Positions 35,398 through 57,454 of a DNA stretch of 64,000 nt are shown one piece after another (position 1 is the first letter of the stretch; every line of letters starts with the position of its first letter). The position numbers and the translations under genes were made by a program. Under the pieces are notes generated by a model that saw only the letters and a program-made list of their open reading frames with translations, had not been told where the DNA came from and did no database searches. The stretch is from Obrimoposthia wandeli. Lineage: Eukaryota. Location: the NCBI GenBank assembly GCA_977020255.1, contig CDROCS010003502.1, positions 124,001 through 188,000 of the forward strand, in the 5' to 3' direction.

Positions 35398-38285
35398 TTT
35401 TTTTTTTTTTTATAACAACAATATATATTATATTTTCGAGACACTAAAAAGCGATTTCTCGCCAGAAAAGTTACAAAAGTAACCGGCCTTCAACAGGTCC
35501 ACACAATCTCCACTCTCTGCTAGCACAGGGTCCAGTGCAGGAGCTCCTTTCCCACGTCCCAGCAGCATCTGAAGAACCCACGTCAGGTCTGAGGACGGAT
35601 ATTGTCGTCATCAGGTGGTTTCTCCATAGTTTCGGCAGTTTCCACAACTTTCGGCATTTCTGCTTCATTTGTCGGGCTCCACATCCGAATCATGTTCATC
35701 TATCTGGACCTCTGTATCTTCTGCTACAAGAGCACGGATTTGTGAGGTGAATGTCCTTGAGCAGTGGAAATGCCACATTTCCCAGCTCCATTTGATTGTC
35801 GCAGTCACAGCCTCCTTGGAGTAGTCCTTGATGACTGGCCCTTTGAGTCCTAAAAGATTGAGAAACTTGTCGTTTAACGGACACCGACTGCCAAAACCGC
35901 CCACCACGATCATGTCTACAAACACGTTCCAATTTTGGAGGCGGGACTTGATCTCAGCCCTGAGATTTTCATATTTTACTTCATTCCATAGCCGGGCTTC
36001 TGACAGGTTGGCAGCAATTGTTGTATGGCACCTTTATGTCGAGGATGACAAATCTGAGGCGCTGTTGATTTATTATTTGAATATCAGGTCTCAGATTTGT
36101 AGCTGAAAACTCGCACGTTTTGTCCACCTCGATCCTGTAGTCATTGTTCCTTTGTAGGTACTTGACCAGGATATCTTGTACGGCGTTGTGACGGGTCCTC
36201 CTTAGGGCACTTAGATTTTACAGTGACTGAAAACATGAAATTGGGTTTCTATAGTAGCATTGCAAGCACGACAATGTCTCATCTCTTGAGAGCGGCTTGG
36301 GTGCGCATTCGTAGGCAGACAGTTTGTGCGTGCACGATGAATAAATATCCAATCGTGGTAGCTGAGGCTTCCGTCGCGTATTATTGTGCTGGAGATCCGG
36401 CTGGCTGCTAGTGCTGATGCGGAAACTCCCTGAAACACTTGTGACGACCACCGGATGAAGTGGGACTTTTCAAGCAATCGACGAAGGAGTTTACACACAA
36501 CACCTTTGTTTGTGGGCTTGACAAGCTGTGGGTGAGCGCTCTCAGACGATCCAAGCTTGAGGCAAATGCCATTCTCATTCGTTAAGAATTCGCATATTAT
36601 GTTACGTTTCGACATTAAGTAATGTACTGCGTCACGTACTTTAGTCCACCAGAAATGGTAATTGTCCTGGCCTTTCCCTTCTTTAAGCCATGATAGCCAT
36701 TTAGGGTCACGTTTCAGGAGTGGAAGACGGCGATGTTTTGCAGCGACATCGTGAAGTTCTTCCCTTGCAGTATGACTCACAAGCTCATCAAAGCAGTTAA
36801 GCATTCTGAAAGCATGGACCACCGCTTGGACGGCATAGTCGTCACGGGCAGAAGTTAGGCCAAGGCCACATTGTTTGTTGGATGCGTATAGATAGGAGTT
36901 ACTGGTTGTTTTTGGCAGATGAACTATACTTTTGATAACTCCCCTAATACGAATATCATATCCACCTTGAGAGAACTTTCGATTATCCTCAGAGCGCTCG
37001 TAAGAGTGCAACAATGCAAGTCGTATCCTTGCCAGTCTCAGAGTGAACGTGAGCCTGGAGTGAATAAACGTTCTGTAGGCGTCGATCTTTGGCCAGGGCC
37101 GAAGTGTGCTTACGGCAATCTTCTCCATGTCGGAAACAGTTGTATCGAGTAGTGCTTGAGGATCTTGCCTGTGAGAATGACCAAATTCTACACCTAAGTA
37201 GTGATAAGGCGGGTCCAAGACTGTCGGCATCTCGTTTCCACTGATCATAATTCGGTACACCGGACGCACAAAAAGCGGCTGGGGCATGATATTACGCCTG
37301 CTGCAATAGAGAATGCAGGGGTCCGAAGTTGGCTTAGGAGCGGCTGGTTCTCCAGGGAGTCGTAAGTATTCGCACTTTCCAGGGTTAAATTTGAGATTTG
37401 ACCAAGTTGCCATCTCTTCGGCCTTGTCAACCATAGCTTGTAGGACATCATTAGTACTGGCAAATAAAGCCAGATCATCGGCATAAGACAGTACATCGAT
37501 CCTCTTGCCATGTAAATTAATGCCTGCATCTGGAATTTTAGATATTTCAGAAATGACCGGGTTGATACCAATGTTAAAGAGTAACATCGAAAGTGGGCAA
37601 CCCTGGCTAACTCCACGACTGATCGGGATCGCTCAAGTTGTAAGTGATCCATAGAAGTATCTGGAACCGCATTCAGAGTAGAGTGACTCGATCAAATTAC
37701 ATGAGTTCTCATTAATCCCCATTCGTCGGAGAAGACCAGACATTTGAATGATAGGCATACATCCGAATGCGTCAGATATGTCAAGGAAGCCAATGTGGAT
37801 CTTTAAAATGAAGTTGTCACGTTTCCGACTCTCGATGATGCTGTTCAGAATGAATGTATGCTCAGCGCACCCTTCGAACTTCCCAGCACTTTTCTGAAGA
37901 GGGTGCAGTAGATGGTTCTTAGTAAGCCATTGTTGCAATTGCCAGGCAAGACATGAAGTGAATATCTTGTAGCATGTATTCAGTATGGCAATAGGACGCC
38001 ATGAAGAAACCTGGTCGTACTTACCATCTTTGTTTGGTTTGGGTATCATCAATGTCCTAAACTGCCGCCAGGTCGTTGGCGTGATTCTATCAGTTATAAT
38101 CTTGTTGAATAAGCTGGTGAGTAGAGCACTGTCTGGGTCGCAGTAACAAATGTCTGAGTAGAGTACATTGTCTTCTCCGGGTGAGGAGTCAGATAGACTC
38201 TTCAGAGTCATGGCAACTTCGGTAGGAGTCATGGTGGTAAAACAGAATTCCGGGCCGTGCTTTATATTTTCCGGGCCGTGCTTTA
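35398..38285 (-). mobile_element. 5'-truncated NeSL/R2-group non-LTR retrotransposon (RT + restriction-like endonuclease), defective
   Basis: RT motifs SPGED, WRPIAI, FLDISDAFG, GVSQGCPLS and YADDL; HRARTNCLP, CCHC (CRAC...H...C), RHN and LRPDI..DIK..KY RLE. In-frame TGA at 37633 and frameshifts near 36210 and 35990. Poly(A) at 35398-35412; 7-bp TSD TATTTAA at 35391-35397 and 38286-38292. Confidence 0.92.
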
Positions 38286-41279
38286 TATTTAATAATGTTT
38301 TATATGCAATAAGTATTGAAGTACAGCTTTCTTCTATCTTTAATTTAAACCATTTACGTTTTTTTAAAAACATTTTGTCAAATATACGAAATCGAGCTTC
38401 TTGGAATATTTTGTCAACCTTGAATAAATGTATGTGAGAAACGAAAAAATTAATAGTTTAAAGTGAAAGCATCTTGGTGTACCTGCTATCGTTATGAATA
38501 CTTATAACATGCTGCATATTTGGATATAACGTTAAACAAATTAGATTTAATTTTTTCAAAAAAGACGAAATCGGGCTTCAAATGTTAAATGTATACGATT
38601 TGTATGTAGTACCTATTTTGATTTTCAGTTGGTGCTTTGAGACCCACTGAGAATAATTCCACAGAATGCTTATTTTTGCACTTGATCGCTTACTGACATC
38701 AGATTCAACATCCAGGCTGTCTATATACGCGACCTCTTATCAGTAGGATGCTATTGATGCAACTCTCAGGTATTTCTTTATGAGAAATTACGACAACTGT
38801 GATTGTTACTTGTATGATATTATATCTCAAATACAGAGGGTAAAGCTATAAGGTTTGTATGTAGTACCTACTTTGATTTTCTCAAATCTGAGTATACTTA
38901 TGGCTGTCTATATACGCGACCTCTTATAACAATTATAACAATAAGTAAGGACTCAAAACAAAATATATTGAAACAAAGTTGGTACAAGTTAGTCTACTAC
39001 GAGTTTACAAACAGTTAGAAAAGTTGTCTTACTTTTGTGCATGTCCTATGTACTGAGTTCCGTGTTGGGATAGTCAGGTAAATGATATGTGAAATATAAA
39101 AAGGATGGGACCATAAAGTTGTGTTTAAAAAAGTCAATTGATCTTACTTACGATGTCCTCCAATGTCTTGCTTATCACTATGTATCGTATTTTGATTTCC
39201 CCTTGTGATTATCTCGCTTTAATACTGAAAAGCTCGGTGGTGGTTACATGATCCAACGGCCAATGAAGTGAAGTTTTCGGTCAGCGTCTTTCTCCCTTCT
39301 CTCTTCTCAACTATTCCTAAAAACGCCCTCTCTCCTATCTGCATACTGCCTCAACTTGCATGAAAAATTTATAGTCGGTACGTGAGATGACGTTGGTTAG
39401 ATCAATTAATCTTAATTTATTTTCTTAAAATTTTGATTTGATTTAATTATTTACACCATCTTTTTAAACAAAGTATTGGCCGGCAGTATAAATATAGCTA
39501 AATTTGTTTGTTCATTTTTGGATCTTAACAATTTGTAAAATATTTAAATGACTTCTGTTTTCCATTATATTTCTGAATTTTATTTGTTTATAATGTAATG
39601 AAATAATGTAATTATCGTTTGTATTTTCAAGTCATTTGACATTAAATACATCTTTAGAAATTTTCCTCTATTTTATCCTTTCTATTATTTTGTCTTTAGT
39701 ATCCTTGTGTCAATATCCTGTGTACTGATAGTAAATTCACATTTTATTTTATTTATTCTGTGTTGAATTGTGGTATATTTCATATAACAAAAATAAATTT
39801 AACCCATTTAAGATTTGTGTTTTTCAAAGACAAACACCTACACATCGAAACATCTAACCTTCCAATTTTGAGACATCGCTAAGAACTTATGAACTAGTGG
39901 CTTCCATAAGAAGTGTAATACTTTTATTGGTGGAAATAGTTGGGAATTTTAGTATAGAATAATCGAAAGAGAAAAATTTTGATCATTAACCAAGGCACTT
40001 TTAATTAATTTACATAATATATTTGTCTGACGACAATGATTAAAAAGATAAAATAACACATATTTTCAAGCATGAAGCACGATTTTTCTTTAAATTAAAT
40101 TGAAAATACGGACAAAGCACGTTGTCCTTTTAATATAATTGTACAGACAATGTTAGTAAAATTCCCTCGATATAAAAAGCTTCATTTCATGGGTATTTTC
40201 ACGGAAAGTTCAAGTCATTCAATAAATACTGTGTCGATTTGATCTACTGCGATGATGATGACGATGAACAGAACAGAGCAATGTCCACGAGGTAAATTGA
40301 ATTGGGAAATTCTTTCGGGGAATGATGGTGAGCTCATGTAGTTTATCCTGAAAAAATGTCTTATAGAATTTGATTTGAGTAAATTTTGTTTTGCTTTTTA
40401 TCAGATTCGTGGTTTAGCTTTCCTCAATTCAAGATCGAAATTATGTGGCTTGTGCACAAATAAATACGATAAATGAGCTATATAAAATAAACATTACATA
40501 ACAATTAAATGATTTTCATGGAACTATAATAGCAATTATTAGCAGAAACTCTGAAACCTTCCAGCCAGAATAAATTCTCTCATCAGTAGATGATAGAGCC
40601 GATGCTGCATACAATTCTCGCCATTGCAAATGGGTAATAATGTACTCATCAAATTTCGCATTTATGAATAACAATACTAATAAAAACAGTGTTTTTGTAT
40701 TCAGATATGTTGCTGCATATAATTAAATTTTAGAAACCGCAAATCAAGAAGATGATGTGTTTCGTCACCATTTCGGTAATGAGAATTTATTCCAGCTGAA
40801 ATTTCAAGATTAGAGATGGTTAGCTATATTATTGGATATTTGACGATGAAGCGTTTTACTTTTATCGTCTGAGAAGATATAAAATGGATTTGAACAGAAT
40901 ATTCTCAGTATCCTGTATATGCATGCATTTACATATATATAGCATTTTAACTCCCCATCTCCAACTGAGTTCTCGGTTCTCGATTTATGCAAAATGATGC
41001 TTGTTTAACTAAGAAAATATTTCTAATTTCCAATTATATTGTGCTTAAATTTTGTTTAATCAATGACGTTTTCATAATAAAGTGAACTAAAGTGATTAAA
41101 GAGGTACGTTTTGTCGTGAAATTCATAGATATGATACATTAAATTTCATTTGTTTAATAATTTTTACATTTGGTTAAAAACTTTCATTCGCCATATTTTT
41201 GGTAGAAATTATGCTTTAAACCGCTATTGAGGTAAACTTATGTTTATTGACTTTTTGAATAAATTTGATAATGATGATC

Positions 41280-41900: not shown

Positions 41901-43462
41901 TACAATTTAAGAAAAATATCCTTTATGAATATATTCTTAGATGCCTTGACAAGCATATATTCATTACGAATTAAAAGATACGACAGTTCAATTTTCACGG
42001 TTTTATTGAAAATTTATCGTGTAATATTAGCCTTTTGTGCTTGATTTATTGAAAATAGTGTAGCAAGCAAATCAAATAAGAATGTAGCTAAATAAATTCA
42101 AATTGGAAGTTGAAGGAAAAAATCTTAAAACAGAAAGAGAAGAGAATGAAGATATGGAGAATTGGAAAGTAAAGAAAGCAAACATGAAAAATTATAATGA
42201 AAAGGTGGTATAAAGTAGAAGAAATGAGTTTGTTTCATAAACTGGAGTCACAGAATAAATCAGACAGGTTTCAAATTTCATTTATATGATAAATTATTAT
42301 GTTTATTTTATTTAGTTTTGATACTTAAAATTAGTGATTAAAATACTTTTGAACAATTATGTTTCTTGTTTGAAATACTTGAAAAATTAACGATTATTTA
42401 TAAATATAACATTCATTTTCATATTTATGCTGATTTTGATTCTAATGACTGAAATCACATTTTATAAATATAAAAATATTATTAATAAAACAGCTATATG
42501 GATAAAATCAAGAGAATTAAAGAAAATTGAAAATATAACTGATGCTTTTATATTTGGATTTAAGAGTAACATAAATTGAATGTCAGTTAAAATATTTTTA
42601 ATTAAAAAAGTAAAAATAAGAATATTGTTGGTCTACTCGATGAAAATATTACAATCAACGCCATTGATGGCGCTATGTCGAGTTATATTTTCTGAATAAT
42701 TAAATTAAAAACATACGATTTAAATAAATAATCCAACCTCATTCGTCAATTCGTGAGTATTTCCCAATCATTAGTAAACAGGTGCCTCTCGTCTTCATTT
42801 AACCAAGTGAGGAGTGAGTCCCTTGTGGTAAAGGGTCCATAGCTTTTTGGGAGAGAAGGAGTAGTTGGCATGACATCATCCACTCATCGGGGAAATGATT
42901 CAAATCTTTGTCTTCGTCCAACTCGACCAATATGTTGTCACAGATTGGTTGTGCCACAGCATTTGATAGGAGAGTCAGTGTAACTCCATCTCAATCTTCA
43001 ATGAACGGAGTCAAATAATCGTCTTCCTCCTCCTCGAGATCTTCCTATTATCAGCATCCTCAGGGTGGTCAGATTAGCGGTCGTTGAACATGTCTTCGTC
43101 CGGGTCTGGAGTGAAAACTGAGAACTTCAGTTGAGACAATATGATAAATTGCCATTGTTAGTGGCGTTTGATGGAGACGTCAAAGAAATCAAAGAGGTTG
43201 TTTCTCTTTCTCACTAGTGCCACTGATATTGTGGATTTCATCGCTGCTTCCACTGAAGTGGAAATACAGGAAATTTGAGCAGAGTTCTGCCGTGGAGTAC
43301 AGTCTTCTCAATATTCTACCAACCCCTGACTAATTATTTCGATATATTTGGATCTTTATATCCCTTTTACATCTGCGTTTCTTGTTGCACAGGAAAGAAG
43401 TCTTTATACAATTGCTCCTCGAGCTCTGCGTCCAAATTAACGTGGTTGTCGTGGGATATAAT

Positions 43463-44131
43463 AGAAGTGTAAAGTGTCGGTTCTAAAACAATAGCACACA
43501 AAGCCCCCCCCCCCCCGAACAAGGCACAAGGAACAAAGCACATCTGAAATTTGTTTAGTCATACAGATGTGCTTTGTTCCTTGTGCCTTGTTCGGGGGGG
43601 GGGCTTTGTGTGCTATTGTTTTAGAACCGACACTTTACGTCTCGAAATTTGTTTGGTCTTATGCGTCACTTACGATTATGTAGGTTAATATTCTGTAACA
43701 TTTGTATATAGTTCAAANNNNNNNNNNNNNNNNNNNNNNNNNNNNNNNNNNNNNNNNNNNNNNNNNNNNNNNNNNNNNNNNNNNNNNNNNNNNNNNNNNN
43801 NNNNNNNNNNNNNNNNNNNNNNNNNNNNNNNNNNNNNNNNNNNNNNNNNNNNNNNNNNNNNNNNNNNNNNNNNNNNNNNNNNNNNNNNNNNNNNNNNNNN
43901 NNNNAAATATGTAAATTAAAAAATTTAAATTTTAATTCAAATTAAAAAATTAAAATTTTAATTCGAAAATTAAAATTTGAAATTAAACACAATTGACCGT
44001 CCCAAATTTTTATTTGCAACTATTTAATTTACTTAGTACTGCGACCTCATTCCAGGAGTTAGACTGCCCCGCATAACCGGACAGCTATCGCAGTTTTTAT
44101 CATAAGAAACGTTATTGTTTATAGTAGGAGT
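43463..44131 (+). repeat. Left TIR of the Polinton (contains assembly gap 43718-43904)
   Basis: Reverse complement of 57455-58027, with a few substitutions and indels. Confidence 0.95.
44038..44094 (-). ncRNA. Candidate small structured RNA in left TIR (second copy 57492-57548, + strand)
   Basis: GC-rich 57-mer closed by ACTGCGA/TCGCAGT, starting 29 nt after a TATAAACAAT box and followed by AATAAA. Function is inferred only. Confidence 0.35.
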
Positions 44132-44154
44132 TTAGTAAAAAAAAAAGTCTATGT

Positions 44155-44394
44155 TTATACATAATTATATTCATTGTCACAATCCATGCTTTCTTCTTCT
44201 TCTATTTTAATGATTGTTGCAACTTTAGGTTTAAAGTCTCCATTAAACAGGTGATACATATAAAGTTCTTCAATCCTTGAGACAAAAAGTTCTGGTGCAA
44301 CAAATAAGCTAAAGTACTTTTCAGTATACTGGGCCATCAAGGTAGGGCTCAGGTTATCATAGAGAGCTTGCAATTTTTCTTTAGAAGTAGTCAT
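44155..44394 (-). CDS. Polinton hypothetical protein (79 aa from first ATG)
   Basis: Open frame MTTSKEKLQ...; a TATAAACAC variant box lies 40 nt upstream of the ATG. Confidence 0.55.
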   Translation of the reverse strand: MTTSKEKLQALYDNLSPTLMAQYTEKYFSLFVAPELFVSRIEELYMYHLFNGDFKPKVATIIKIEEEESMDCDNEYNYV

Positions 44395-44559
44395 TTGAAA
44401 TAATGAGAAATTGGTTGATTGAAATGTGTTTATATTTATAGAGAATTTGTTAAAATTATCCAATGAAATTATCCAATGAGTAGCTAGTAGGAAGTCAAGA
44501 CATGGTTATGATACATACAATGTATTAAAAATAAACATCAATAAAAATATATACATACT

Positions 44560-44625
44560 ATAGCATTAAAAATATATACATACTATTGCATTAAAAAGAT
44601 ACATACTATCACATTAAAAATAAGA
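44560..44625. repeat. ~25-bp tandem repeat x3 (aaaaatatatacatactatagcatt-like)
   Basis: Directly visible, lying between the polB end and the 79-aa ORF. Confidence 0.8.
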
Positions 44626-44673
44626 GGATATTAGTTAATACTTTCAAGAGGTTACCCCAGATTTTATATACAC

Positions 44674-47600
44674 CTATCTTAGACTATAGTGTCCATATGC
44701 GACGGATTTGTTTTTCTCAAGCCAAACCCTTTTATCGTCATAACACCTTAACGCAATTTTATCATTATACATTGTAAATATACACTGTCTTACCATATAT
44801 TGAATTATTTTTGAGTTTATAAAACTCTTTATCAAATGTAGTAGTACCCTCTGCCCGTTTCCGACTATTGATATCAATATATGTTTTAAATATAGGAGCT
44901 TGATGAAACTTTATTGCTCTATGCACTTGTTTAATTTCTGCACCCAGAAACAAGTAAAATTGTAGTAGTTGTGAGTGTATGATGTAATTATTTTTATCCT
45001 CATGGGTCATCAACAGCTTTGAAGCTTTTGAGCCGGGAGGGATTTCTCTATTAGGCGCAATCGGTAAGTCATCAAGTTTATCATGAATACTGATGGGTAT
45101 GCCTAAATCAATTTCCAACAAGTATCCATGTTCTTTAAGACTCAAGTTCTGCATATTACCGTGAATATCCCTCTTAGTTATAAGCTCAATTATCGCTTCA
45201 AAACCGTCATATACCCATGTAAAATCTGTATGTGGTAACGGTTGACTCAAGGCCCAGCCATATAAGTTATTTATGTCAATATATAGGAGGAATGTTTCAT
45301 CTGTTGTTTTAACGTAATGTTTATTGATGAAAGTCATCCCTCCCCGTATCCCTGCCTCAAACATGTTATACATTTCGGGATCATGCAATAAATCCACATC
45401 ATACTCTAATGTTTTTAATGCGCTAGCCCAACTGAGACCAGGGATACTAAAGAAATTGAGCGCCTCTAGATTATCATCATCCCTTACTTTCTGTCTAAAG
45501 GCCTCAAAAACATCACATAACAGATACACGTCAAGTTTCATATACTCAAGCATGTAGTCTTTAATAGTATTACACCCTAATACGGTCCACATCATTAGGG
45601 CTTCATTATATTGTTGATCAGTGACTCGAGAAGGAAACTCAGATTTAGCGGGTAACTGCGTCTCCATAAGCCTATCAACACCACTAATATATTCATATGG
45701 AAATACCGCCTTACTTGTGGCAATATTAGGGTTTAGGTATTGTGTAGTATAAGGGCAACTTGGCAAGTATGAAACTAAGGATTCAAGACTTGACGTTGTA
45801 AAAAGGTATGAATCAATGAATTTCAATGTCCCCCTCTTCATCTCTATACGGAGGGACATGAACTTTTCACTTGATTTAGGGATAATTGAAAAGGATTTAC
45901 CTTTCAAGTCGGCATATTTTAAAATATGATGTATATCATAACCCATAAGGTTATGAAACACCACAGGTAAAACCGGTCTCTTTGCAAACTTGCGACTTAA
46001 ATTGCATTTGTTGCATGCCGCACCCAAGTATTTACCCGTGATATGATCATGATCTCTAACCATACGATCGTTTAATTTTTTACAAAGATAGCAATTAGTG
46101 CAATCTCTAAAGTTTAACATGTCATTATTAGTAAAAACCATAGGAACATTAATACTATTTACCCAAAAATCTGCCACTTCACCATTTATCAACTCAGTTA
46201 ATTTATCTACAAAGTTTTTAGCACACTGCAGACCGTAATAACTGAAATATTGTATTGAATTATTAGTGTTGTTTTTCAAAATCATCCCTATAGATATTGG
46301 TTTATGAATGTGTTTGAAAGTATTATGTGGCTCGAGTATTGACTCAAAGTCGGCATATACAACAAATGGTGGCGCAATAGATTTAGACCAGTCGGAAAAT
46401 TGACACTTGATCTCTTTAGGCATTGTAAACAAGGTTGTTAAATCTGTATTAATATTACAATGTGCCCTGTGTTTGTCATATGAAATCGTGGTTCGAAATC
46501 CAAAAGACATTTCTCACACCAAAAGAGACGCACATTATATTTTTGAGTATTTAAAAGTCTATTCAGGTTTGTAATCCCTGTATAGTGATAATTACCGCTC
46601 TGTTCCAACAGCAACAAGTTTACTACCTTTTCGCACTGTTTAAGACTCGTTCTATAAATAACATTAACATCTGGGTTTTTAAACACTAGATGACTACTAT
46701 GAGGCTCTACCTTTGTAGGTTTATAGGAGAATACTGTTATCGCTATATTATTGAGTTTTTCAAACGCCTTGATACCGTCTATCCTCATAGGACCAGGCTC
46801 ACATATAAGTTCATTTAAATAATCATTATAGTTTTCAACTCTTTGTCTGTTTCGATTGAAATCTTTATAGTGTAGGATACTGAGAACAGCGTATTTAAAA
46901 CACTGATCATCAGTATTATTTACGTTCACTATAGATAGTGTTTTAGCAAGCGCAACCGGGGTTTTTATAAATGATGATCCTGCTACGTTTGAAAGTGCAG
47001 TAAATTTAAAGGATACCAACAGAATTTTAAATACTGACCATCCCGAACTCATATCCTTATAAATTTCAATTTTATTGTTGAGCTCAACTGTTCTTGTAGT
47101 GATAAAATCTTGTTCAAAAATATTTGCTTTACAGCTTACATGCCATGTTTTATGTTGACCCTCGTTATTGACAAATTCGGTTTCAACACCAAACTGTATT
47201 TTACAGGGACCAAACACATCTATACTGCTAGTAAGTTCAGTTAGCATAGTATCGTTAATGTATAGTTTAAGCATGTTTAATCCACTAACATCAAAAACAA
47301 GGTTTGATTGAATTGCACCTCCTATTTGATTGTTAAAAGTTAATGTATTATCTGAATTAATTGTAACAATATTATCAAAGTCATCATCCGTAATAGTTAG
47401 GAGTGAGTCGAAAAAATCATTTTCTGTTATAAACTCGTCCTGATCTATAAGTTCATCAATATTATTATTATTTAAGATTTCATTAGGGCTTAAAGGCTCA
47501 ATAATTTCTACAACTTCAGGATAAGTATCAATTTCTACAACACTATCCGGTTCCCATGAGTCTACCACATCAAACTCTTCAGTAAAATTATTAGTTTTTG

Positions 47601-48084
47601 CTATTTTATTGTTGTCTATTGTTGGTACTCTCATTACTTTACGTTTGTATGCTGACTTTTTAGACTTAAAATACGTCAGATGATCCTTATGATCATAATA
47701 AAATGTTTGATAGTCAATACAATATAACACATCACAATGTGGACAAATAAAACCGCTTTTAAATTTATAATATTTAAGCATTACACTATGACATTCTATT
47801 CCATGATTAACGTTTGTGCAATACTTGTACAATGTACATAAGTTACTTCCTCCACGAAGTTTAGGGTATACATGGATAATAGCCCCCTCATGTAAAACAT
47901 CACCGATAATAGCTTCCCTTTCAAAGGGCATGCCATTACGGTTAAAATAAATTTGATCAGTCTCAAAGACTTCATATAATTTATTTGCCAGATCTGTAAT
48001 TTTCAGACCTGGACTAATATTAATGGGTTTGCAAGACCCTAATAAATTTGCAAATATTGTTATATCTGCTGGTAGTTTTCTCAA
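44674..48084 (-). pseudogene. polB: Protein-primed family B DNA polymerase (Ubl + terminal-protein region + EndoVII-like + exonuclease + partial palm); frameshifted and internally deleted
   Basis: YADFE, RDHDHITGKYLGAACNKCN, HNLMGYD, YIDINNLYG and KNNSIYGKT motifs, plus C-terminal KIALRCYDDKR..GHY. One-base frameshift at 46502-46505; catalytic YxDTDS motif absent (junction ~44785). Confidence 0.93.
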
Positions 48085-48085
48085 T

Positions 48086-48835
48086 CTACGCAGCTTCTGA
48101 CGAAATCTTTTTCCCTTCCCTACCTTCTGTTTTAAGTTTACTTAAATCAATATTTTGATTTTTTACTTTCTTTAATTGATTAAAATATTTTTTAAACGGG
48201 ATATTTTCAAAACCCGAGTATATCTCATTTACGTTGAAATTTTCTACTGAATTAACAGGTGACCCAACAGGTGTTCCTGGTTTAAAAAGTAAGGGGTAAC
48301 CTCTTGATTTAATTAACTTATTCTGCGACCCCATTCCAGGAGTTAGACTGCCCCGCGTTACCGGGCAGCTATCGCAGTCGGGAGAATAAGATTTTATATC
48401 CCTTATATCCCCAAAAAGTTTATATAAATGAGTATCATATGGAGAATGAGAATGAGAATGAGAATGAGAAGATGAAGAAGAAGAAGGAAGTTGAGAGTGA
48501 GAAGATTTCTCAAGAGATAAAAAAACTTTTGACATTTTCTTCTTTTCATCATCATCATCATATATTGTTGTTGGCATATTCTTCTTTTTCTTCTGCTTTC
48601 GGCTTCTTTTCTTAGTAGGAGCATGGTGCGTTGAAAGCCATGGTGCGATTGATATTGGCAGTGGTGTGACACTCTGTATTGCTAAATTAAATTAAAAATA
48701 ATAATAATAATAATCAAAATTACCTTTCTTCACAGGTGTCGCATCCAAGTCGACATCATCATCATCATCATCATCGACTGCAGGCTTCACTGTCCATTGT
48801 TTATTGCTGTTGTAAGCAAAAATAATTTTTGACAT
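48086..48835 (-). CDS. Spliced Polinton hypothetical protein, 235 aa (exons 48835-48724, 48681-48086; additional 5'-UTR intron 48879-48836); low-complexity, acidic and NLS-like basic tracts
   Basis: A 42-nt GT-AG intron joins MSKIIFAY...PVKK in frame to the 163-aa ORF; a 44-nt gtaagt...ttag intron ends immediately before the ATG. Confidence 0.7.
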
Positions 48836-49260
48836 CTAAAAAAAAATAATAAAAATAAAAATAAAATCAAAATACTTACTTTTCGAAATTGTGAATGAAA
48901 TTGATAAATGACACTACACTGATTGTTTATATATCGTTCACAATCAGTGTAGTTGCTGCCCTAGATGTACACGTCACACATCACGTGTGTACTTACAAAC
49001 TAGGAATGCGTAATAAAGACTCTTTATTCCCTAGTTGCTACACACGTGATCATAAAGGTTAATTACGGTCAATCAATTATGAATATTTTCATAACCGATA
49101 TTCACACCGTTAAACTTTAAATTTTTAAAAATAATTAACACCATTAATTTTCTCTTAATTAGTAGATTTTAAATCTATTTTTTAATTTATCAAAACTCAA
49201 ATTTTTTTTAATTTCGATGGGACAGCTATTTATAAAACAAATACGATTTTGAATACAAAT

Positions 49261-49266
49261 TTTATT
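49261..49266 (-). terminator. Probable polyadenylation signal (AATAAA) for the structural-gene block
   Basis: Lies ~35 nt downstream of the protease stop, at the start of the only long intergenic gap in the block. Confidence 0.45.
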
Positions 49267-49297
49267 ACCAATCAACACAAATAAAAAGGTTTGACAT

Positions 49298-49678
49298 TTA
49301 TATAGTTTGATCATACAACCATAAGATACATAGTGGACCGCAATTAGTAGTCAGTGGGTTTTGAGAACGAATTTTGTTGTAATATACATGTTTTCCTTGA
49401 GACTCTACATGCTTGATAAGTTTTCCCGGATAGTATACTCCAAGAGGGTCATACACATGTACAGAATTCCGTCTCACGAATAACGCAATCCAGTGTTCTC
49501 CAGGAAGATTTGAGGTATGTGTATTGACAATATATCCCCCAGGCGTTAATGTTGGGATTTTTTCCAACGGGTATACACCCTTAAATCGCGGTCCGAGCAG
49601 CAAACTAGTTATTTCATTCACCTGAACAGTACTTGTTGTTAATAAAATCTTAAAACATAAATTAAAAACTCACTTCAT
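49298..49678 (-). CDS. Adenain-like (adenovirus-type) cysteine protease, spliced, 112 aa (exons 49678-49674, 49631-49298)
   Basis: IVNT...PGEHWIAL and Q....NCG motifs. A 42-nt gtgagt...aag intron restores the typical MNT.Q...FKGVYP N-terminus; the ATG overlaps the capsid stop (ATGA). Confidence 0.9.
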
Positions 49679-50898
49679 ACAATCACACGTCGGCCTTTAG
49701 TTATTTCAAACTCAGAATCAAAAATCCCGTAAATCAGTACGTTTGTTGGGACTGTTAATGACTTGTGAAACTTGATGTCAAGGCGTAAATTACCCTGTTT
49801 TGCTAATTGGTTTTGCGTGATATCAAAGTCAGGGGCTAAAACAAACGTGAAAAATGGATATTTGGTTTCGAATTCATCCAGTGATACGCCATTGTTTATA
49901 TTCTTATCCAAATTACCCATATTTCTAATGATAGATTGGACATATGCAAAGGTGGTTTCACCTGTTTCAAAGTTTGTACTGTAATATTCGTTAAAATCAC
50001 TGTTTCTAGCAAGACTGATAGTGTTAACATTAGAATGATCGAATGTTGAAGAGTCTGTAGCACCATTACCGATAAGTTTTTCACCTGCTTGCAACGTAAT
50101 CAACACAAATTTAGGCAATTGTTCATCATCAAACACTTGATCCTTGTAAAAACTCGTAGAACCGATGGCTAAGGTATGATACATTAGCTTTCTGCGAGTA
50201 TAGGGATATACAGCATTCCTAGATTCAAGACCAATATTATGTCCCATTAAAACATCATTCTCAACTCTGACTCTTCTGACTTTAAGTTTAGCTTCAATAA
50301 ATATGATTCGCGCTAGAGTCGTTCCGTAGTTCAGACAAAACATAGATTTATTAGGTACAAGTCTTACCATGATAGACACACCAGGTAAGAGATACTTTGG
50401 TTGCTCAAAAATATCAGATCGAAGAGTCCCACACAAGTCAATTTCTTTTGAGCGAGCAGCCCAACCTTTACGCTTATCATCATCATCATCATAACCTATA
50501 CTCGACAAACAAGTGTCTTTAGTGTCTGTGCTATAGTTTAGTATGGTTTCAATCATAGCTTTTTGTGCATATTGAGGATGGGTTTCTACTACAGTATTAT
50601 TCATTGTTATATCTATGCTTTTAAATAGGGAATGCATCAAGAAATTTGATGGGACCACATTATCTGCAACAGCTATTTCTGTACCATCAGTTTTCGTTAC
50701 TTTAATTTTCACAAACAACAAGGTATCATTCAAATCTAAGTACTCAATATCTGAACCTTGGATTTTAAACAGAATCTCTGATGTTCTTGTTCCGGTAATA
50801 TTGTTTGTTGGATATATATCTTCAAAGCTACCATTATTTACAACTACCTGGGGCAAAGCTCGATCAAAAATACATAATTCAGATTTACCACAAGCCAT
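49675..50898 (-). CDS. Major capsid protein (Polinton PY, double jelly-roll; F54H12.2-like)
   Basis: KSEL..F, EYLDLNDTLL, FLMHSLF and LRSDIFEQPKYLLPGV motifs typical of Maverick MCP; 407 aa. Confidence 0.82.
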   Translation of the reverse strand: MACGKSELCIFDRALPQVVVNNGSFEDIYPTNNITGTRTSEILFKIQGSDIEYLDLNDTLLFVKIKVTKTDGTEIAVADNVVPSNFLMHSLFKSIDITMNNTVVETHPQYAQKAMIETILNYSTDTKDTCLSSIGYDDDDDKRKGWAARSKEIDLCGTLRSDIFEQPKYLLPGVSIMVRLVPNKSMFCLNYGTTLARIIFIEAKLKVRRVRVENDVLMGHNIGLESRNAVYPYTRRKLMYHTLAIGSTSFYKDQVFDDEQLPKFVLITLQAGEKLIGNGATDSSTFDHSNVNTISLARNSDFNEYYSTNFETGETTFAYVQSIIRNMGNLDKNINNGVSLDEFETKYPFFTFVLAPDFDITQNQLAKQGNLRLDIKFHKSLTVPTNVLIYGIFDSEFEITKGRRVIV

Positions 50899-50900
50899 TA

Positions 50901-51308
50901 TTAAGCAAATATTGTACCTTGTTTTCTTCGTTTGTTTATACTAAATGCTTTCTTTCTACCACTACCCTCTTGCTTTTTAGTTTCGGGTTCAACCGTTTGT
51001 GCTGCTTCACTTGCTTTACGTTTACGTCGATTTTTAATAATTTTAACAACTGTACCAAAAGCTTCCTTAGCCTCCGGTATGGCTCCGGCAACTTCCCCTA
51101 GTGCATGTTGTTTAAGCATTGGTAACACAGATTTGTTGTTCATTATTACATCTTGAACTGTTTTAACTCCAACACGACCTAATCTTTTCAGTATAGGGAA
51201 TGCTAACCGCCCCAATGTTTTCAACCATCCCGAACCGTACTGTTTACCTACAAAATATGGTAATTCACCACCTTGTTGAGGTCCACTAAATGTCTCAATT
51301 ATATTCAT
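50901..51308 (-). CDS. Small Polinton core/virion protein (135 aa from first ATG) with QxGG/QxGxG sites and an amphipathic helix
   Basis: QQGG, QYGSG followed by WLKTLGRLAFPILKRLG, QEGSG, basic C-terminus. Confidence 0.7.
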   Translation of the reverse strand: MNIIETFSGPQQGGELPYFVGKQYGSGWLKTLGRLAFPILKRLGRVGVKTVQDVIMNNKSVLPMLKQHALGEVAGAIPEAKEAFGTVVKIIKNRRKRKASEAAQTVEPETKKQEGSGRKKAFSINKRRKQGTIFA

Positions 51309-51344
51309 AACTGTAATGGACAACTATTTTTGAATACAGATTGT

Positions 51345-52481
51345 TTATACCTGATCTATACAACGGACATGTATGGTAAGGGATACTTTTGCATTGTTGG
51401 AAAAACTTATTGGCACACCTGCATCGTTTCTAATATTAATTTCAATGTTTGAGATTACATTTGATGCTAAAGGGATATACATGGGTCTGTATATTGCGAT
51501 ATTAACCGTGTCTCCTGGTGCTTTATTTTTATCTAACCATATAGATTTTAATAAGGGTATCATTTGACCTCCAACGTTTACAGGTTCACACAGACTAGAA
51601 TACAAGTACATGTGATCAAACTCGTAATTTAATCGAGGTAGTCCAGACCCGTTGCCCGTAAATCGTGATTTATCTAACCCTAATACATACATTAAACGTT
51701 GATCAAATCCAATATGCTCAATTCCATTCTTTAATACAAATTTTATTAGCTTATCATTATCATCAATATAAAATCTTTTAAATATGACGTCGCATTTAGA
51801 TTTAATGTATGCTACTAATGCATTTACATTATTATTATTTAAATCTTCTGTAAATACAATTTTCTTGTTGTATGAACCGGTTTTATAATGCATATATTGT
51901 AAATTATGTGCACTGCAATCAGGTCTGATAGACGTTGATCCAAGTAAAACTCCTTTATCATCAGACTCGAAACCTTCTGAAGTTAATGTATTGAAAATGA
52001 ATCCTAATTCATTTTTAGCGTCAACATCCATCTTGATATAGAATTTTTTGTTGTTGACGGATTTTATTAGTACAACATTATCCTTTTTATCAATACCTAC
52101 ACCAACTGTGCTTAAGGAAATAGAAAGCTTTGCAATCTTATCTTTAGACGTGACGGTGAGTTTTGATATTTTATTAATTGTCTTTTTAATAACTTTTGGT
52201 TCTGATTTATCACCATGCAATTGCGGTTCTTTCTTTTCTACTTCTACTTGAGTATGAATTACTGATAAAGATATTTGATCAGTCTGTTGATTGGAGAATT
52301 TAATAGAATAATTAATTTCACTGCCCTTATTTAAAATAACAGGAGTGTTTGTGTACGTAAATTCAGTTAATGCCGCCTCCCATTTACCATTTAACGTAAT
52401 TGGATTCTCCCAATCTACAGTGAATAATGAAGCCATATTATTAGGTTGAGTTTTCGGACAACTATTACTCGGTAAAATCAT
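51345..52481 (-). CDS. Minor capsid protein (penton, Polinton PX)
   Basis: LPSNS......N..S.F.......I.L.G.WE.AL.E N-terminus and YLYSSL.EPV.VG...PLL C-terminal motif. Confidence 0.78.
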   Translation of the reverse strand: MILPSNSCPKTQPNNMASLFTVDWENPITLNGKWEAALTEFTYTNTPVILNKGSEINYSIKFSNQQTDQISLSVIHTQVEVEKKEPQLHGDKSEPKVIKKTINKISKLTVTSKDKIAKLSISLSTVGVGIDKKDNVVLIKSVNNKKFYIKMDVDAKNELGFIFNTLTSEGFESDDKGVLLGSTSIRPDCSAHNLQYMHYKTGSYNKKIVFTEDLNNNNVNALVAYIKSKCDVIFKRFYIDDNDKLIKFVLKNGIEHIGFDQRLMYVLGLDKSRFTGNGSGLPRLNYEFDHMYLYSSLCEPVNVGGQMIPLLKSIWLDKNKAPGDTVNIAIYRPMYIPLASNVISNIEINIRNDAGVPISFSNNAKVSLTIHVRCIDQV

Positions 52482-53512
52482 ATAGAAATCTCTATCTGGC
52501 TTGCTTTGATCCCTGTTGATTCAGAATATCCATGCCACTTTACGAGATATTGTTTATTCTTACCACGGCCTTTAGATTTTACGACTTCTTGGATACGGAA
52601 AAGTGTAGGTTTATCAATTACTTGTAGTTCAGGTTCATAAAATTTCCCTGTTATTACATTACAGTCATCATCAACTATAGAGTACATTACAGGATTTGCA
52701 CGTTTGTCTATTTTCTCTATCCTAAACACTTCATCACTCCAATTCTGATCAAAGTTTTTAATAAAGGGGCTACCACTAAACTTTGATATCCGAACATAAT
52801 CACCAGTCTTATGTTTAGGTTTATTAACTTTATCGACTTGATTACGACTCAACCAAATTTCCATTGCATTTTTATCATTAATATCGACAGGTCTCAATCC
52901 GTCTAAACCTCTATGCTTACTGTGATTGTATGAAGTCATTACTTTTGGTAAAACGTCAACCCATCTTTTATTGCCTTGTGCAATAAAATGTCTTTTTAAT
53001 CGATCTCTCAATGTTCTATTAAACCTTTCAACTAGGGCAGCTTTGAATTGTGAAACTACAGAGTAATGTTCAATATTTAATTTTTTAAATAAACTACCTA
53101 CATTTTTGTTGTAAAACTCTTTACCCTTATCAGTTTGCACATGTATGGGGACAGTTTTATCAGTCATTATACTTAGAGCAGCCTCTATATCCTTACCTGA
53201 TTTAGATTTTACAGGTAATGCACGCGCATACCTTGTAAACACGTCAATACATGTTAAAATATACTTGTTACCATCATTGATACTTGCATATGGTATCATT
53301 TCCATCAAATCGGCCTGCCATAAATCGTTAGGACCACTTGTTCTGTATGCTCGAGTCGGGAACTTCCGCTTCATTGGCTTGTTTAGACTGTATGCTAGCT
53401 GATTGCTCAGCCATTTCTGAGTTTTCTTTTGAGTCGATTGACTTCTTAATGATAGTTTGCCAATGCCGCTGTACCCAGCTGGGTTTTCGGGATCGTACCA
53501 TATCGTTTCCAT
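52478..53512 (-). CDS. int: Retroviral-like DDE integrase with C-terminal chromodomain-like region
   Basis: WQADL, QTDKGKEF and VERFNRTL catalytic triad; C-terminal QYLVKWHGY. Confidence 0.96.
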   Translation of the reverse strand: METIWYDPENPAGYSGIGKLSLRSQSTQKKTQKWLSNQLAYSLNKPMKRKFPTRAYRTSGPNDLWQADLMEMIPYASINDGNKYILTCIDVFTRYARALPVKSKSGKDIEAALSIMTDKTVPIHVQTDKGKEFYNKNVGSLFKKLNIEHYSVVSQFKAALVERFNRTLRDRLKRHFIAQGNKRWVDVLPKVMTSYNHSKHRGLDGLRPVDINDKNAMEIWLSRNQVDKVNKPKHKTGDYVRISKFSGSPFIKNFDQNWSDEVFRIEKIDKRANPVMYSIVDDDCNVITGKFYEPELQVIDKPTLFRIQEVVKSKGRGKNKQYLVKWHGYSESTGIKASQIEISI

Positions 53513-53563
53513 TACAACAATTGAATTTAAAATCGATGTTTGGTATGTTATTACCCATTTTGT

Positions 53564-53893
53564 TTATGAGTTTATCAATTTTGCAATCAAAGGAGATACT
53601 AAAGTAGCAATTATAGGTATTAATGCACCGATAAAACCACCTTTTTGTTTTAGAATTACTCTACGTTTACCAGTTTTACTTTTAGTATTCACTAAATCAA
53701 GTAAAGCTTTTTGATGTTTTCTAAGGTTATGTTTATGATTACCGATTTTTACAGTACCTTTTGTAATATTAAACAAGACTTCAACCAACTTATCAATAAC
53801 AAAGGGTGGAAATGACTTGAGTATACGTTGTCTATATATGCTTGGAGCCTTGATTAAAGCCTGAAAGTAGGGAAGTATAGATTTTGATAACAT
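53564..53893 (-). CDS. Basic virion protein with adenovirus pX/mu-like hydrophobic C-terminus
   Basis: QKGG|FIGALIPIIATLVSPLIAKLINS resembles adenoviral pX (RGG|ILPLLIPLIAAAIG). Confidence 0.65.
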   Translation of the reverse strand: MLSKSILPYFQALIKAPSIYRQRILKSFPPFVIDKLVEVLFNITKGTVKIGNHKHNLRKHQKALLDLVNTKSKTGKRRVILKQKGGFIGALIPIIATLVSPLIAKLINS

Positions 53894-53924
53894 GTTTAAT
53901 GAATTAAACTATTTGCAATATTGT

Positions 53925-54236
53925 TTATAGTTTAATCCATTTACCAACTAGTTTATTTACACGCTTTTTATCCGACTTCTTAACCGACTTTCCAACTGCT
54001 TTCTTAACAGGTTTCTTCTTTAATGGTTTCTTTTTTACAGGTTTTCTCTTTACTGTCTTTACCGATTTCTTTAATGATTCATCGACTACTTTACGCTGAT
54101 GAAGCACTGATTTAATAAGATTTTTAATATGAGCATTCTTCTTTAACATCAATTTGTTATCATTAGCGTGTAATTTATCACCCGGTCTCCATTTAGGTCC
54201 AACTCCACTAGGCATTGTTTCTTTCATAAATGACAT
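53925..54236 (-). CDS. Lysine-rich, probably DNA-condensing core protein (103 aa from first ATG)
   Basis: KKSVKTVKRKPVKKKPLKKKPVKK tract. Confidence 0.6.
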   Translation of the reverse strand: MSFMKETMPSGVGPKWRPGDKLHANDNKLMLKKNAHIKNLIKSVLHQRKVVDESLKKSVKTVKRKPVKKKPLKKKPVKKAVGKSVKKSDKKRVNKLVGKWIKL

Positions 54237-54238
54237 GA

Positions 54239-54886
54239 TTAACAAGTAGATAGGCTTTTCTTTTGTTTATATACAAAATCATTATTGAAAATATCGGTTC
54301 TCACGCGTAAATCGTCTGGACATTCCTGTGTAAAATCTAAAAACAAGTATCCATGAGGGTTAGTTGTTGCATCTTGAAATGCGTCAATCAAATATTGCTT
54401 ATTACAAGGGAAAGCTTGACGGGCAACAAAGTCGATAACCGTTTGATCTCGCGGATTTTTAAATAATACTAGATAATGTACATTTAAATTCCGAGTACGG
54501 TGTTGACCGCCTTGATGAAAAAGATTTTGAGTGATAAAAATCACTGTTACATTTCTATGTCTAGCTATTTTGGTAAACAGGTTATTAAAACCCGACTCTT
54601 TATTTGCTTCATCAAACAAATCATCAATTACAATGACATCTCCTGAATTTAACCTCTCAGACCATTTATTATCAAAACCATTAATAAAATGAATACCCTT
54701 CAATTTACCTAATTCTGTTCGTGTTAGACCAGATTCACCTACACCTCCGTAATGCCAGTATATTCTACTAAACTTTTGATTAAACATGATTTTATTTTGA
54801 AGTAATTTAGTTACAAAATGTGTTTTCCCACTCCCACTAGGTCCTACTATTTGGTAAACCGCGTTATTTTTAAGTTTTATCATCAT
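54239..54886 (-). CDS. A32/FtsK-like genome packaging ATPase
   Basis: Walker A GPSGSGKT, Walker B VIVIDDL, RH..........TQN, and R...LN..Y.VLFKNPRD. Confidence 0.95.
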   Translation of the reverse strand: MMIKLKNNAVYQIVGPSGSGKTHFVTKLLQNKIMFNQKFSRIYWHYGGVGESGLTRTELGKLKGIHFINGFDNKWSERLNSGDVIVIDDLFDEANKESGFNNLFTKIARHRNVTVIFITQNLFHQGGQHRTRNLNVHYLVLFKNPRDQTVIDFVARQAFPCNKQYLIDAFQDATTNPHGYLFLDFTQECPDDLRVRTDIFNNDFVYKQKKSLSTC

Positions 54887-54916
54887 CAATAATAATAAAT
54901 CAAAAGAAACGATTGT

Positions 54917-55183
54917 TTATATACGTTTTATTAATATATACAACAACAGAGAATTAAAAATTGATGCAGAAAAGGTTATATACATCATGTTTGAACGATT
55001 AATTTGAACAAATTTTTCAAAATCCTTAATCCGTTTGATATCTCTATAGACATGGGTGCAAACAATTTCCTTTATATTATTACGAGAAAGTCCATCAAAA
55101 CTAGAAAAGTATTGAACTCCATTTATTGTTCCGTTTATAATTTCCTCGACTGCATCATCAACTAATTTATCGTTTTCATCCAT
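54917..55183 (-). CDS. Polinton hypothetical protein (88 aa, hydrophobic C-terminus)
   Basis: Tightly packed ORF with a TATAAACAAT box 31 nt upstream. Confidence 0.6.
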   Translation of the reverse strand: MDENDKLVDDAVEEIINGTINGVQYFSSFDGLSRNNIKEIVCTHVYRDIKRIKDFEKFVQINRSNMMYITFSASIFNSLLLYILIKRI

Positions 55184-55201
55184 TTATATAAATCATAAAT
55201 T

Positions 55202-56101
55202 TCAATTGTTTATACCATGAAATTTTACATTTCTTACTCTCCGTTCGATCAGACATCTGCATACTGGACATGAATGTAACATTCTAGAACATGATATACA
55301 TGTATTTACATGTCCACAAGGGAGAAATACTACTTCAATATGATTATTTAAACATACTACACATTCGGGTACCTTTAAAATGTATGAAAGTATATTTATA
55401 TATTGTTTTTCAGGTTTCATTTCTAAATTAGATAAATCACAAAGCAATTCAAATAGTGAATTGTATTCACCATATCGCATCATTTTATATTTTAAAACAG
55501 ATTTTATTCTATCTTTTGTGAAAAACTTTTTCAAATATCTGATTTGGTTTGTATCCATCAACATATCGAATTTCTCGATAGTCAATGGATATTCAATTAT
55601 ACAATCTGTTTCGATTTTCTCAATAACATTAGCCTCATTATAGGGTCCTAAACATTTTGAATAGCATATATCAGGTAATTTTATATCAATATCTGATACA
55701 TGTACTTTTCCAATCAATGGTGATGTATCAAAATCGATTTTCTTGTTCATAGTTTCAATTATTGATACATTTGAAACATTTAACTTTAAAAGAAATGGAC
55801 ATGTAGGAAAAAATTTCATATGTTGCTTCATTGGTTTAAGATACCATTCCCATTCGGATAACGCACCTTGACAGTATATACATTTTACTTTATCGGTTGA
55901 ATCATCATCATGTTTATAAAATCCGGCTTTAGCTAAATCATTTACAGATTGTTTCCCTTTAAAATTTATAATTAATGATCTTAATCTTTCACTTTCACGT
56001 CTATATTTCCAGTGTAAAACTTTCATTCTAGAATAACCTACTTTTCGTCTAACTAAAACATCATCAACAGTTGTATAATGAAGTATATAATCAACTAGCA
56101 T
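55202..56101 (-). CDS. iap: Inhibitor of apoptosis (single BIR + C-terminal RING)
   Basis: BIR: R..S...LAKAGFY...C-x2-C-x16-H-x6-C. RING: CVVC...FLPCGH..C..C......CPVCR. Confidence 0.93.
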   Translation of the reverse strand: MLVDYILHYTTVDDVLVRRKVGYSRMKVLHWKYRRESERLRSLIINFKGKQSVNDLAKAGFYKHDDDSTDKVKCIYCQGALSEWEWYLKPMKQHMKFFPTCPFLLKLNVSNVSIIETMNKKIDFDTSPLIGKVHVSDIDIKLPDICYSKCLGPYNEANVIEKIETDCIIEYPLTIEKFDMLMDTNQIRYLKKFFTKDRIKSVLKYKMMRYGEYNSLFELLCDLSNLEMKPEKQYINILSYILKVPECVVCLNNHIEVVFLPCGHVNTCISCSRMLHSCPVCRCLIERRVRNVKFHGINN

Positions 56102-56142
56102 TTCAAATCATGTAAGAATAAAATTCAACTAAAATTTATTGT

Positions 56143-56635
56143 TTATATCAAAAGTAAAATATCAGTTATTATCAAAGTCACATCAAAGTGATAATCCAAA
56201 TCCTTGAGACCGAGTATGACCACTTTCCCGCTTGCAAATATGTTGACGCATAGAGGATTGTGTTTTGTAAACCTTAAAGCAGGAAACAACTCAGGTTCGA
56301 ACATGCACGCAGCTCCACACTTTTGAGACAACTTGTATAGGTTCACCTTCTTACCTAAATCGACAGTAACCGTTACTGATTGAATACGATCAATCTTTAT
56401 TCTAAATGGACACTTGAGCAAAGTTGTAGTAATAGGTTTCTTGCAACCCATTATCCTGCATGCTCCTAATAATAACTAACTAACTAACTAACATAAAAAA
56501 CATACCTGAACGGAAGATTATAAGGGTATAATCCTTACACCTGTGCACGTACTGACATGGTTTCCCGGTTTTGAAGGGTAAGTGACTGATGTCTCCTTTA
56601 ACTTTACCTTTATAATTAATATTTGCAAGATTCAT
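56143..56635 (-). CDS. TATA-binding-protein-like protein, 150 aa, spliced (exons 56635-56506, 56465-56143)
   Basis: Repeat 2: VTVDLGKKVNL...FEPELFPAL...P...NIFASGKVVILGLK. Repeat 1: LANI...LIIFRSGACRIMGCK, completed by removing a 40-nt gtatgt...ttag intron. Confidence 0.85.
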
Positions 56636-56758
56636 GATTGAATTGATGGAAATAACCCAATCTATATATAAAATTTTTAAGCTAAAGATTATCCAATCAG
56701 AATCGAGTATGATATATATATAAGCTACCACTTTTGGTATAGAATTCATTATTTTGAT

Positions 56759-57406: not shown

Positions 57407-57454
57407 TTGTACTAATATATATTTATCGATGTTACTTTGCTTTCTTCAATATAG

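Follow-up and report, generated by a model that had tools for sequence, protein, structure and literature searches.

A subterminal hairpin-forming palindrome at both ends of a decayed Polinton from Obrimoposthia wandeli

The window considered here is a 64,000-nucleotide stretch of Obrimoposthia wandeli DNA (assembly GCA_977020255.1, contig CDROCS010003502.1, positions 124,001 to 188,000 of the forward strand), and all coordinates count from its first base unless another locus is named. It contains an integrated Polinton with the following features.

43457-43462: left target-site duplication, TATAAT
43463-58027: Polinton, 14.6 kb, integrated, bounded by AGAAGT..ACTTCT
43463-44134, + strand: left terminal inverted repeat (TIR), including an N gap at 43718-43904
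44674-48141, - strand: protein-primed polymerase B gene (pPolB), in three pieces (PF03175, E 1.4e-23)
48308-48391, + strand: internal copy of an inner TIR segment, 80% identical to 44024-44107
49298-49669, - strand: adenovirus-type protease frame, weak Peptidase_C5 match (E 0.007, below the curated cut-off), no ATG in the open frame
49675-50898, - strand: major capsid protein, weak DJR match (E 8e-04, below the curated cut-off)
52478-53512, - strand: rve integrase (PF00665, E 2.6e-12) with a weakly matching chromodomain
54239-54886, - strand: A32-like packaging ATPase (Pox_A32, E 4.7e-07)
55202-56101, - strand: IAP-like gene with BIR and RING (Pfam)
56143-56629, - strand: TBP-like gene, frame broken near 56.5 kb
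56759-57406, + strand: open reading frame (ORF) adjoining the right TIR, with a weak lead to viral single-strand-binding-like clusters
57452-58027, - strand: right TIR
58028-58033: right target-site duplication, TATAAT

The original prediction took this element for a Polinton, and that identity is borne out by the TIRs, the end motif, the 6-bp duplication, the pPolB, the rve integrase and the ATPase, together with the weaker capsid and protease matches. TIRs, a 6-nt end motif and a 6-bp target duplication are also the hallmarks given for Mavericks in a vertebrate set (PMC8097293, in the part available). The resemblance extends to the length of 14.6 kb, TIRs of several hundred bases and the AG..CT form of the end motif (PMC8097293, same part), and to a gene complement of pPolB with terminal-protein (TP) and vOTU domains, rve integrase, ATPase, protease and capsid protein (PMC8097293 and PMC11161782, parts of each). 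Two things are different. The end motif is AGAAGT, not (AGT)2, and a palindrome with arms of 75-78 bp starts at base 7 of each TIR. The capsid protein has 172 relatives, the best at 55% identity, and two metagenome relatives (L005 and L023) are syntenic and have a gene set in common with this Polinton. The TBP-like gene is unbroken in both of them. The present copy is decayed, with a broken polymerase and a frame-broken TBP-like gene.

Several smaller observations concern the same region. For the ORF at 56759-57406 the nearest Atlas clusters are giant-virus hypothetical proteins (score 0.87-0.90), and one nearby cluster carries Pox_I3 on 12% of its members, which hints at a possible single-strand-binding protein. 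The copy at 48308-48391 lies upstream of the polymerase gene, is 80-85% identical to 44024-44107 and 57492-57562, and might be a promoter or binding site common to these places. The polymerase gene is bracketed at 44630-44671 and 48280-48321 by an inverted repeat of 42 nt (76%). In L023, positions 5616-7687 hold two tandem copies of a gene matching window positions 51345-52481. Elsewhere in the window, fragments at 403-1728 and 36211-38457 (both - strand) resemble, by eye, a Helitron Rep/helicase region and a broken non-LTR retrotransposon reverse transcriptase, respectively.

The palindrome sits within the TIR, 6 nt from the target duplication, at both ends of the element. Its parts are as follows.

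43463-43468, + strand: left end motif AGAAGT, a variant of the (AGT)2 Maverick end, unpaired in the folded hairpin
43469-43546, + strand: left outer arm, 78 nt, with a C13 run
43547-43563, + strand: left loop (X), 17 nt, AAATTTGTTTAGTCATA
43564-43638, + strand: left inner arm, 75 nt, with a G10 run, otherwise the exact reverse complement of the outer arm
43637-43661, + strand: X', a diverged direct copy of the arm end and loop, with 4 differences in 25 columns against 43540-43563
57853-57927, + strand: right inner arm, 75 nt, with a C10 run
57928-57944, - strand: right loop, 17 nt, oriented relative to its end like the left loop
57945-58021, + strand: right outer arm, 77 nt, with a G12 run
58022-58027, + strand: right end motif ACTTCT, a single-stranded 3' tail in the folded top strand

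The hairpin had been noticed from the letters alone, and its coordinates, arm lengths, 17-nt loop and letters are all confirmed to the base. So is the claim that the arms differ only in a C/G run, as they are complementary at 65/65 remaining positions at both ends. Both inner arms have a run of 10, whereas the outer arm has one of 13 on the left and of 12 on the right. At each end of the element the arm starts at base 7, directly after the conserved end motif. The copy of the loop with two mismatches that was said to follow the hairpin is indeed present at 43645-43661 and has its mirror at 57830-57846. By eye, the loop read in reverse resembles a motif near the arm start (CTAAA.CAA.T; compare 43481-43492, 43547-43563 and 43645-43661).

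Can such a structure fold? That a long subterminal hairpin would be able to do so on a single strand is borne out by computation. The right end folds as single-stranded DNA with -97.5 kcal/mol (z = -21), and equally stable folds were found in 0/200 shuffles. The folded 3' end is a 6-nt tail in which 2/6 bases are paired and the terminal base is unpaired. For the terminal 240 nt, the computed energy of end-to-end pairing is -309 kcal/mol vs about -195 for two local folds. Perfect inverted arms of at least 20 nt and no more than 100 nt apart occur in window positions 1-57699 only in the Polinton hairpin and in a 121-bp mini-element. Host DNA at 20768-20870 has a palindrome with 51-nt arms, 90% complementarity and a 1-nt spacer, which is unrelated to the Polinton ends.

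The palindrome is a genuine structure, precisely described. It is very improbable that it is an assembly or library artefact, either a fold-back chimera or a repeat mis-assembly beside a scaffold gap. Suspicion arises because the left TIR contains a scaffold gap of 187 N (43718-43904) only 80 nt inward of the left hairpin, and because the homopolymer lengths are unequal between arms. However, the junctions are identical at both ends, within a clean 6-bp target duplication. The two TIRs are identical at 381/384 aligned bases plus one gap (two segments compared), so that they differ at few sites and are not one pasted consensus. Furthermore, the loop differs from its neighbouring copy, which is not a difference that copying artefacts yield. 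Raw reads provide another clue. Twenty sampled 31-mers of 43463-43717 are present at 100, 100, 75 and 75% in four sequencing runs, all of which come from one sample and study, may be the source of the assembly itself and are thus not independent. In the two runs that contain 20/20 words, the chance that none of these spans a hairpin junction is about 0.01 (either) or 0.12 (given one). Words of this length are unable to phase the loop across a 75-bp arm.

The other perfect inverted repeat within positions 1-57699 is 29 kb from the Polinton.

14386-14506: non-coding mini-element, 121 bp, AGTAGT..ACTACT, 36-bp TIR (35/36), 6-bp target duplication AACGTA

By its sequence, this is a non-autonomous derivative of a Polinton, and a very small one. 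Over the first 29 nt it agrees with the Polinton end at 24 positions (0/2000 shuffles), making the ends related but distinct. A 19-nt pattern common to both occurs six times in the window where 0.06 occurrences are expected; two of the six lie in the mini-element and the other four in the Polinton arms. It is clear from the mini-element that this genome has received an insertion consisting of a bare fold-back of two Polinton-type ends. Its spacer bears a weak likeness to the loop copy and the bases that follow it (39/2000 shuffles, with five comparisons tried), which is a lead only. The CTAAA.CAA.T motif is retained in the mini-element as well and may represent either a binding site present more than once or an inverted copy of older date.

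Relatives were searched for similar ends. Patterns common to the Polinton end and the mini-element gave 0 matches in viral_contigs and 0 in 63 fetched loci. In viral_contigs, neither the capsid protein nor the capsid alignment returned any loci, and the integrase returned 3. The capsid alignment retrieved 24 metagenome loci (43-57% identity), none of which has a recognisable element end. Among these 24 and the 3 integrase loci, hairpins passing the filter (at least 18 paired bases, arm GC at least 20%) were found only in L023, where they are internal and AT-rich. Two adjacent AT-rich hairpins with 29- and 32-nt arms lie between two ORFs at 809-957 of that locus. The polymerase alignment identified 36 viral loci, 35 of them with at least one contig end, for a total of 47 ends. 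No arm longer than 16 bp is present at any of these 47 ends, which belong to distant relatives and mostly to truncated contigs. An end-like motif at the start could be recognised by eye only in L028, L038, L054 and L060. Most elements of this kind therefore seem not to need a hairpin.

The words "hairpin" and "palindrome" are absent from the main text of PMC8097293, and hairpins in Polinton ends do not feature in the available portions of PMC8097293, PMC11296320, PMC12747079, PMC12220804, PMC13236599, 10.1101/2023.10.06.561300 and 10.1101/2025.02.07.637071. The literature searched yielded no report of a terminal palindrome in a TP-bearing Polinton; Repbase or the supplements of papers may describe such ends. 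In Halocafeteria seosinensis, TIR palindromes are reported to adjoin the target duplication in virophage subtypes 1, 2, 5 and 6 and PLV subtype 4, mostly in elements without pPolB, and hairpin priming has been proposed for them (10.64898/2026.07.28.741278, as far as the accessible part of the preprint goes). The original prediction is right that long subterminal hairpins are unusual, and its idea of hairpin-type replication was partly anticipated by this proposal. Both cases involve rve-integrated double-jelly-roll elements with a palindrome in the TIR beside the target duplication at both ends. However, the palindrome is 52 nt in subtype 5, whereas here it is about 170 nt and offset by the 6-nt end motif (the comparison extends to the same part of the preprint). 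In addition, the Halocafeteria elements mostly have no pPolB, whereas here a TP-bearing pPolB, dead in this copy, is the only replication gene found.

How might the palindrome have arisen? The order of end motif, arm, loop, inverted arm, and arm end plus loop agrees with template switching in two steps. Starting from the element end, a polymerase would copy past the loop, then switch and copy the arm backwards. It would halt on reaching the 6-nt end motif and rejoin the template a few bases before the loop. The direct repeat that this would leave behind is X' (43637-43661 vs 43540-43563), whose local score is above that of 2000/2000 shuffles. A decayed inner end motif after the inner arm was considered and rejected, since GTCTCG, which occupies the position expected for ACTTCT, fits the arm end better. 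Consequently, there is no inner end motif. Template switching of this sort makes arms identical and can invert the spacer, with no need for a function (PMC8604942, in part). The described quasi-palindromes are similar in that two-switch copying does both, and different in that they involve short repeats, yeast genes and host polymerases rather than a 75-bp arm and a viral origin (same source and part).

A copy-back of this type may also account for the mini-element. Running through the end motif it would give a mini-element, and stopping at the motif and returning it would give a hairpin TIR. In other words, an integrated fold-back with both end motifs complete is the expected product of a completed copy-back.

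The arms and the direct duplicate differ in divergence. The arms have 0/65 substitutions vs 4/25 in the direct duplicate (Fisher p 0.005, with boundaries chosen post hoc), and the loop alone differs from its copy at 2/17 positions (p 0.04). Provided that the direct and the inverted duplicate arose in one event, this indicates that the arms have been corrected or selected since. Perhaps the arms are copy-corrected against each other while the two loop copies drift apart, and the entire TIR is copied from one end of the element to the other. The run pattern of 10 vs 12-13 is common to both ends and suggests that whole-TIR copying took place after the run had last been corrected from one arm to the other.

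The mode of replication of this lineage bears on what the palindrome could do. The polymerase frame is broken near 46.5 kb, and about 210 codons including the DTDS motif are absent near 44.78 kb. This motif is present in 22/23 fetched polymerase relatives, plus L005 and L023. As read here, then, the polymerase of this Polinton copy is broken and its catalytic motif is missing. The only polymerase relatives with an organism name are from a wasp (33-38% identity), which suggests that the AT-rich eukaryotic host would be an animal. The unbroken N-terminal frame of the polymerase was modelled with guidance from an alignment (pLDDT 86.8), and the model contains two domains.

46560-46965, - strand: vOTU protease domain, Cys147 and His252 invariant in 26/26 aligned sequences
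46992-47316, - strand: terminal-protein-like domain (little-finger/PAD fold), Ser at the predicted linking site, codon at about 47046

Residues 9-117 of the model resemble the little finger of the Y-family polymerase PolIV (4ir1; Z 8.0, rmsd 2.5, 91 aligned) and residues 126-261 resemble OTU proteases (Z 7.5, rmsd 3.4, 101 aligned). Fold scores of Z 7-8 are middling on their own, but the pair of domains and their order match the described Polinton TP-vOTU. A Foldseek search with the N-terminal part of the polymerase gave no match at E 0.001, with Y-family polymerases ranked at the top. Terminal protein followed by vOTU is the arrangement described for Polintons, with the linking residue in the loop between the second helix and the last strand and a Gly next to it (PMC11161782, in the part available). 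Here Ser99 occupies this loop, is Ser in 25/26 sequences and is followed by Gly. This model points to a lineage that has retained the parts for protein priming, namely a predicted TP with its linking Ser and a vOTU. With the TP-like domain, predicted linking Ser and vOTU dyad retained, the lineage would initiate by protein priming.

Other parts of the polymerase region are less easily placed. An endonuclease VII-like insertion in the polymerase has a family match above the curated cut-off (E 2.8e-05). Such a domain is present on 17/23 polymerase relatives and so is not tied to the hairpin. Endonuclease VII-like insertions in these polymerases have been described, in the literature as partly available, as homing endonucleases. 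No Pfam or PHROG match to HUH/Rep, tyrosine recombinase or A22-type resolvase was obtained in the ORFs scanned, several of which have no assignment. The stretch 47830-48141 (- strand), which is upstream of the first polymerase ATG and includes the first residues, reads like a ubiquitin-like unit. It ends in LRGG, which we take to be a ubiquitin-like motif, and the stretch has no Pfam match. It precedes a Cys/His-rich stretch, then the TP domain and the vOTU deubiquitinase.

The original prediction likened the hairpin to self-priming viral ends. Parvoviral and poxviral termini have a long terminal palindrome with an asymmetric, invertible loop (partly covered by the available sections of PMC4061559 and PMC11296320), and the Polinton end has such a palindrome and a loop that could be inverted. 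On the points compared the analogy fails: the 3' end is unpaired, no Rep/NS1 nickase or resolvase gene was found in the ORFs scanned, and the element is a linear integrated form with a target duplication and a retained TP domain. Self-priming in the manner of a rolling hairpin or a poxvirus would require that the 6-nt tail is trimmed, that the fold-back primes and that a nuclease regenerates the ends. This is improbable given an end motif that is unpaired on folding, the missing nickase or resolvase match and the TP fold, despite a very stable terminal fold, the exonuclease region and endonuclease VII-like domain of the polymerase, and the fact that host enzymes could use a hairpin where the element's own polymerase is dead. 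The same mechanism has been put forward for the virophage and PLV palindromes, but in the available part of that preprint these accompany mostly non-pPolB elements (10.64898/2026.07.28.741278). Without trimming, priming from the 3' end is impossible. Extension would overwrite the end motif, yet neither of its copies is damaged. The ORFs scanned contain no match to Rep/HUH, a telomere resolvase or A22, and the presence of the endonuclease VII-like domain on 17/23 relatives separates it from the hairpin. The loop has the same orientation at both ends, which also counts, weakly and in a single copy, against the suggested flip-flop origin. Conversely, loop inversion between copies would be no proof of flip-flop, because template switching inverts spacers too (PMC8604942, in part).

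A different role is suggested by protein-primed genomes. The prevailing model for these has initiation and end repair proceed through a panhandle, for which direct evidence is said to be lacking (PMC11886824, in part). In the adenovirus and PRD1 panhandle a displaced strand re-creates a duplex origin via its inverted repeats, which can restore end homology (same source and part). The Polinton would be alike in this, and different in that each of its ends can also pair locally whereas in those genomes the ends pair together. What if the hairpin provides single-stranded intermediates of a protein-primed lineage with a duplex formed locally and an initiation motif left exposed? Once a strand is displaced or excised, each of its ends would fold locally before the two, 14 kb apart, meet. 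The fold would consist of a 75-bp stem, with the conserved end motif protruding unpaired at the 3' end. Such a folded end would be a local stand-in for the 14-kb panhandle, and its stem would put a duplex next to an initiation template that is already open, for use by the TP polymerase (or the integrase). Polymerases with a terminal protein start synthesis by slipping on short repeats. Since end-to-end pairing is the more stable (-309 vs about -195 kcal/mol), the local hairpin would be a kinetic product. The case for this local-duplex role is a tentative one, argued from one Polinton copy.

A functionless by-product is nearly as likely, though it too must be called no better than possible. Here the palindrome would have the same template-switch origin and self-correction and would simply be carried along, leaving untouched the first 30-40 bases that are read by the integrase and polymerase. 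Template switching both creates and homogenises inverted repeats (PMC8604942, in part), the direct duplicate is the mark of a single slip, Polinton ends seem prone to form fold-back derivatives such as the mini-element, and the 47 contig ends of distant relatives have no comparable hairpin. What does not fit is that the limit of the inner arm coincides precisely with the end motif, on the left as on the right. As a rule, a palindrome of 75 bp is unstable when its spacer is short, but this one has been kept long enough for the duplicate to diverge. Moreover, palindromes in the same place are found in all complete members of five virophage/PLV subtypes from another host (10.64898/2026.07.28.741278, accessible part). 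Less probable by far is an excision or resolution signal, in which a chromosomal cruciform, or a four-way junction of two folded ends, would be cut by a structure-specific nuclease such as the endonuclease VII-like domain. The junction base does lie 6 nt inside each element end, and the family match of the nuclease (E 2.8e-05) is above its curated cut-off. T4 endonuclease VII cuts cruciforms. However, a 17-nt spacer disfavours cruciform extrusion in duplex DNA, and the domain is common in relatives, where the partly available literature describes it as a homing-endonuclease insertion. Least probable, to the point of being remote, is that the palindrome acts as RNA, for instance as a decoy RNA of the virus or a small-RNA hairpin precursor. 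Transcription through the palindrome would yield an RNA that folds into a long duplex, but the six miRNA-precursor matches in Rfam are all far below gathering scores (best 51 vs 120 bits), as expected of any long hairpin, and the arms are exact DNA complements with no G-U pairs.

Polinton excision and the start of Polinton replication have been modelled, and the literature searched contained no demonstration of either. The end described here offers a short, defined DNA substrate for which protein priming, self-priming and junction cutting predict different outcomes. It also adds an element with a TP polymerase to the carriers of terminal palindromes, which so far (in the part of the preprint available) were reported from virophages of protists and from one PLV, mostly in the absence of pPolB. 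This weakens the idea that palindromes replace protein priming. A bolder and rather doubtful version of the local-duplex role is that some TP Polintons use a self-folding end, so that each single-strand end would be its own origin, two folded ends that meet would make a four-way junction for the endonuclease VII-like domain, and copy-back through the motif would lead to mini-elements. If true, end structure, excision and the birth of non-autonomous derivatives would all be linked to one reaction. If the palindrome is only a slip that perfects itself, it would still be a record of template switching at the origin of a Polinton, and of a way in which mini-elements are likely to form.
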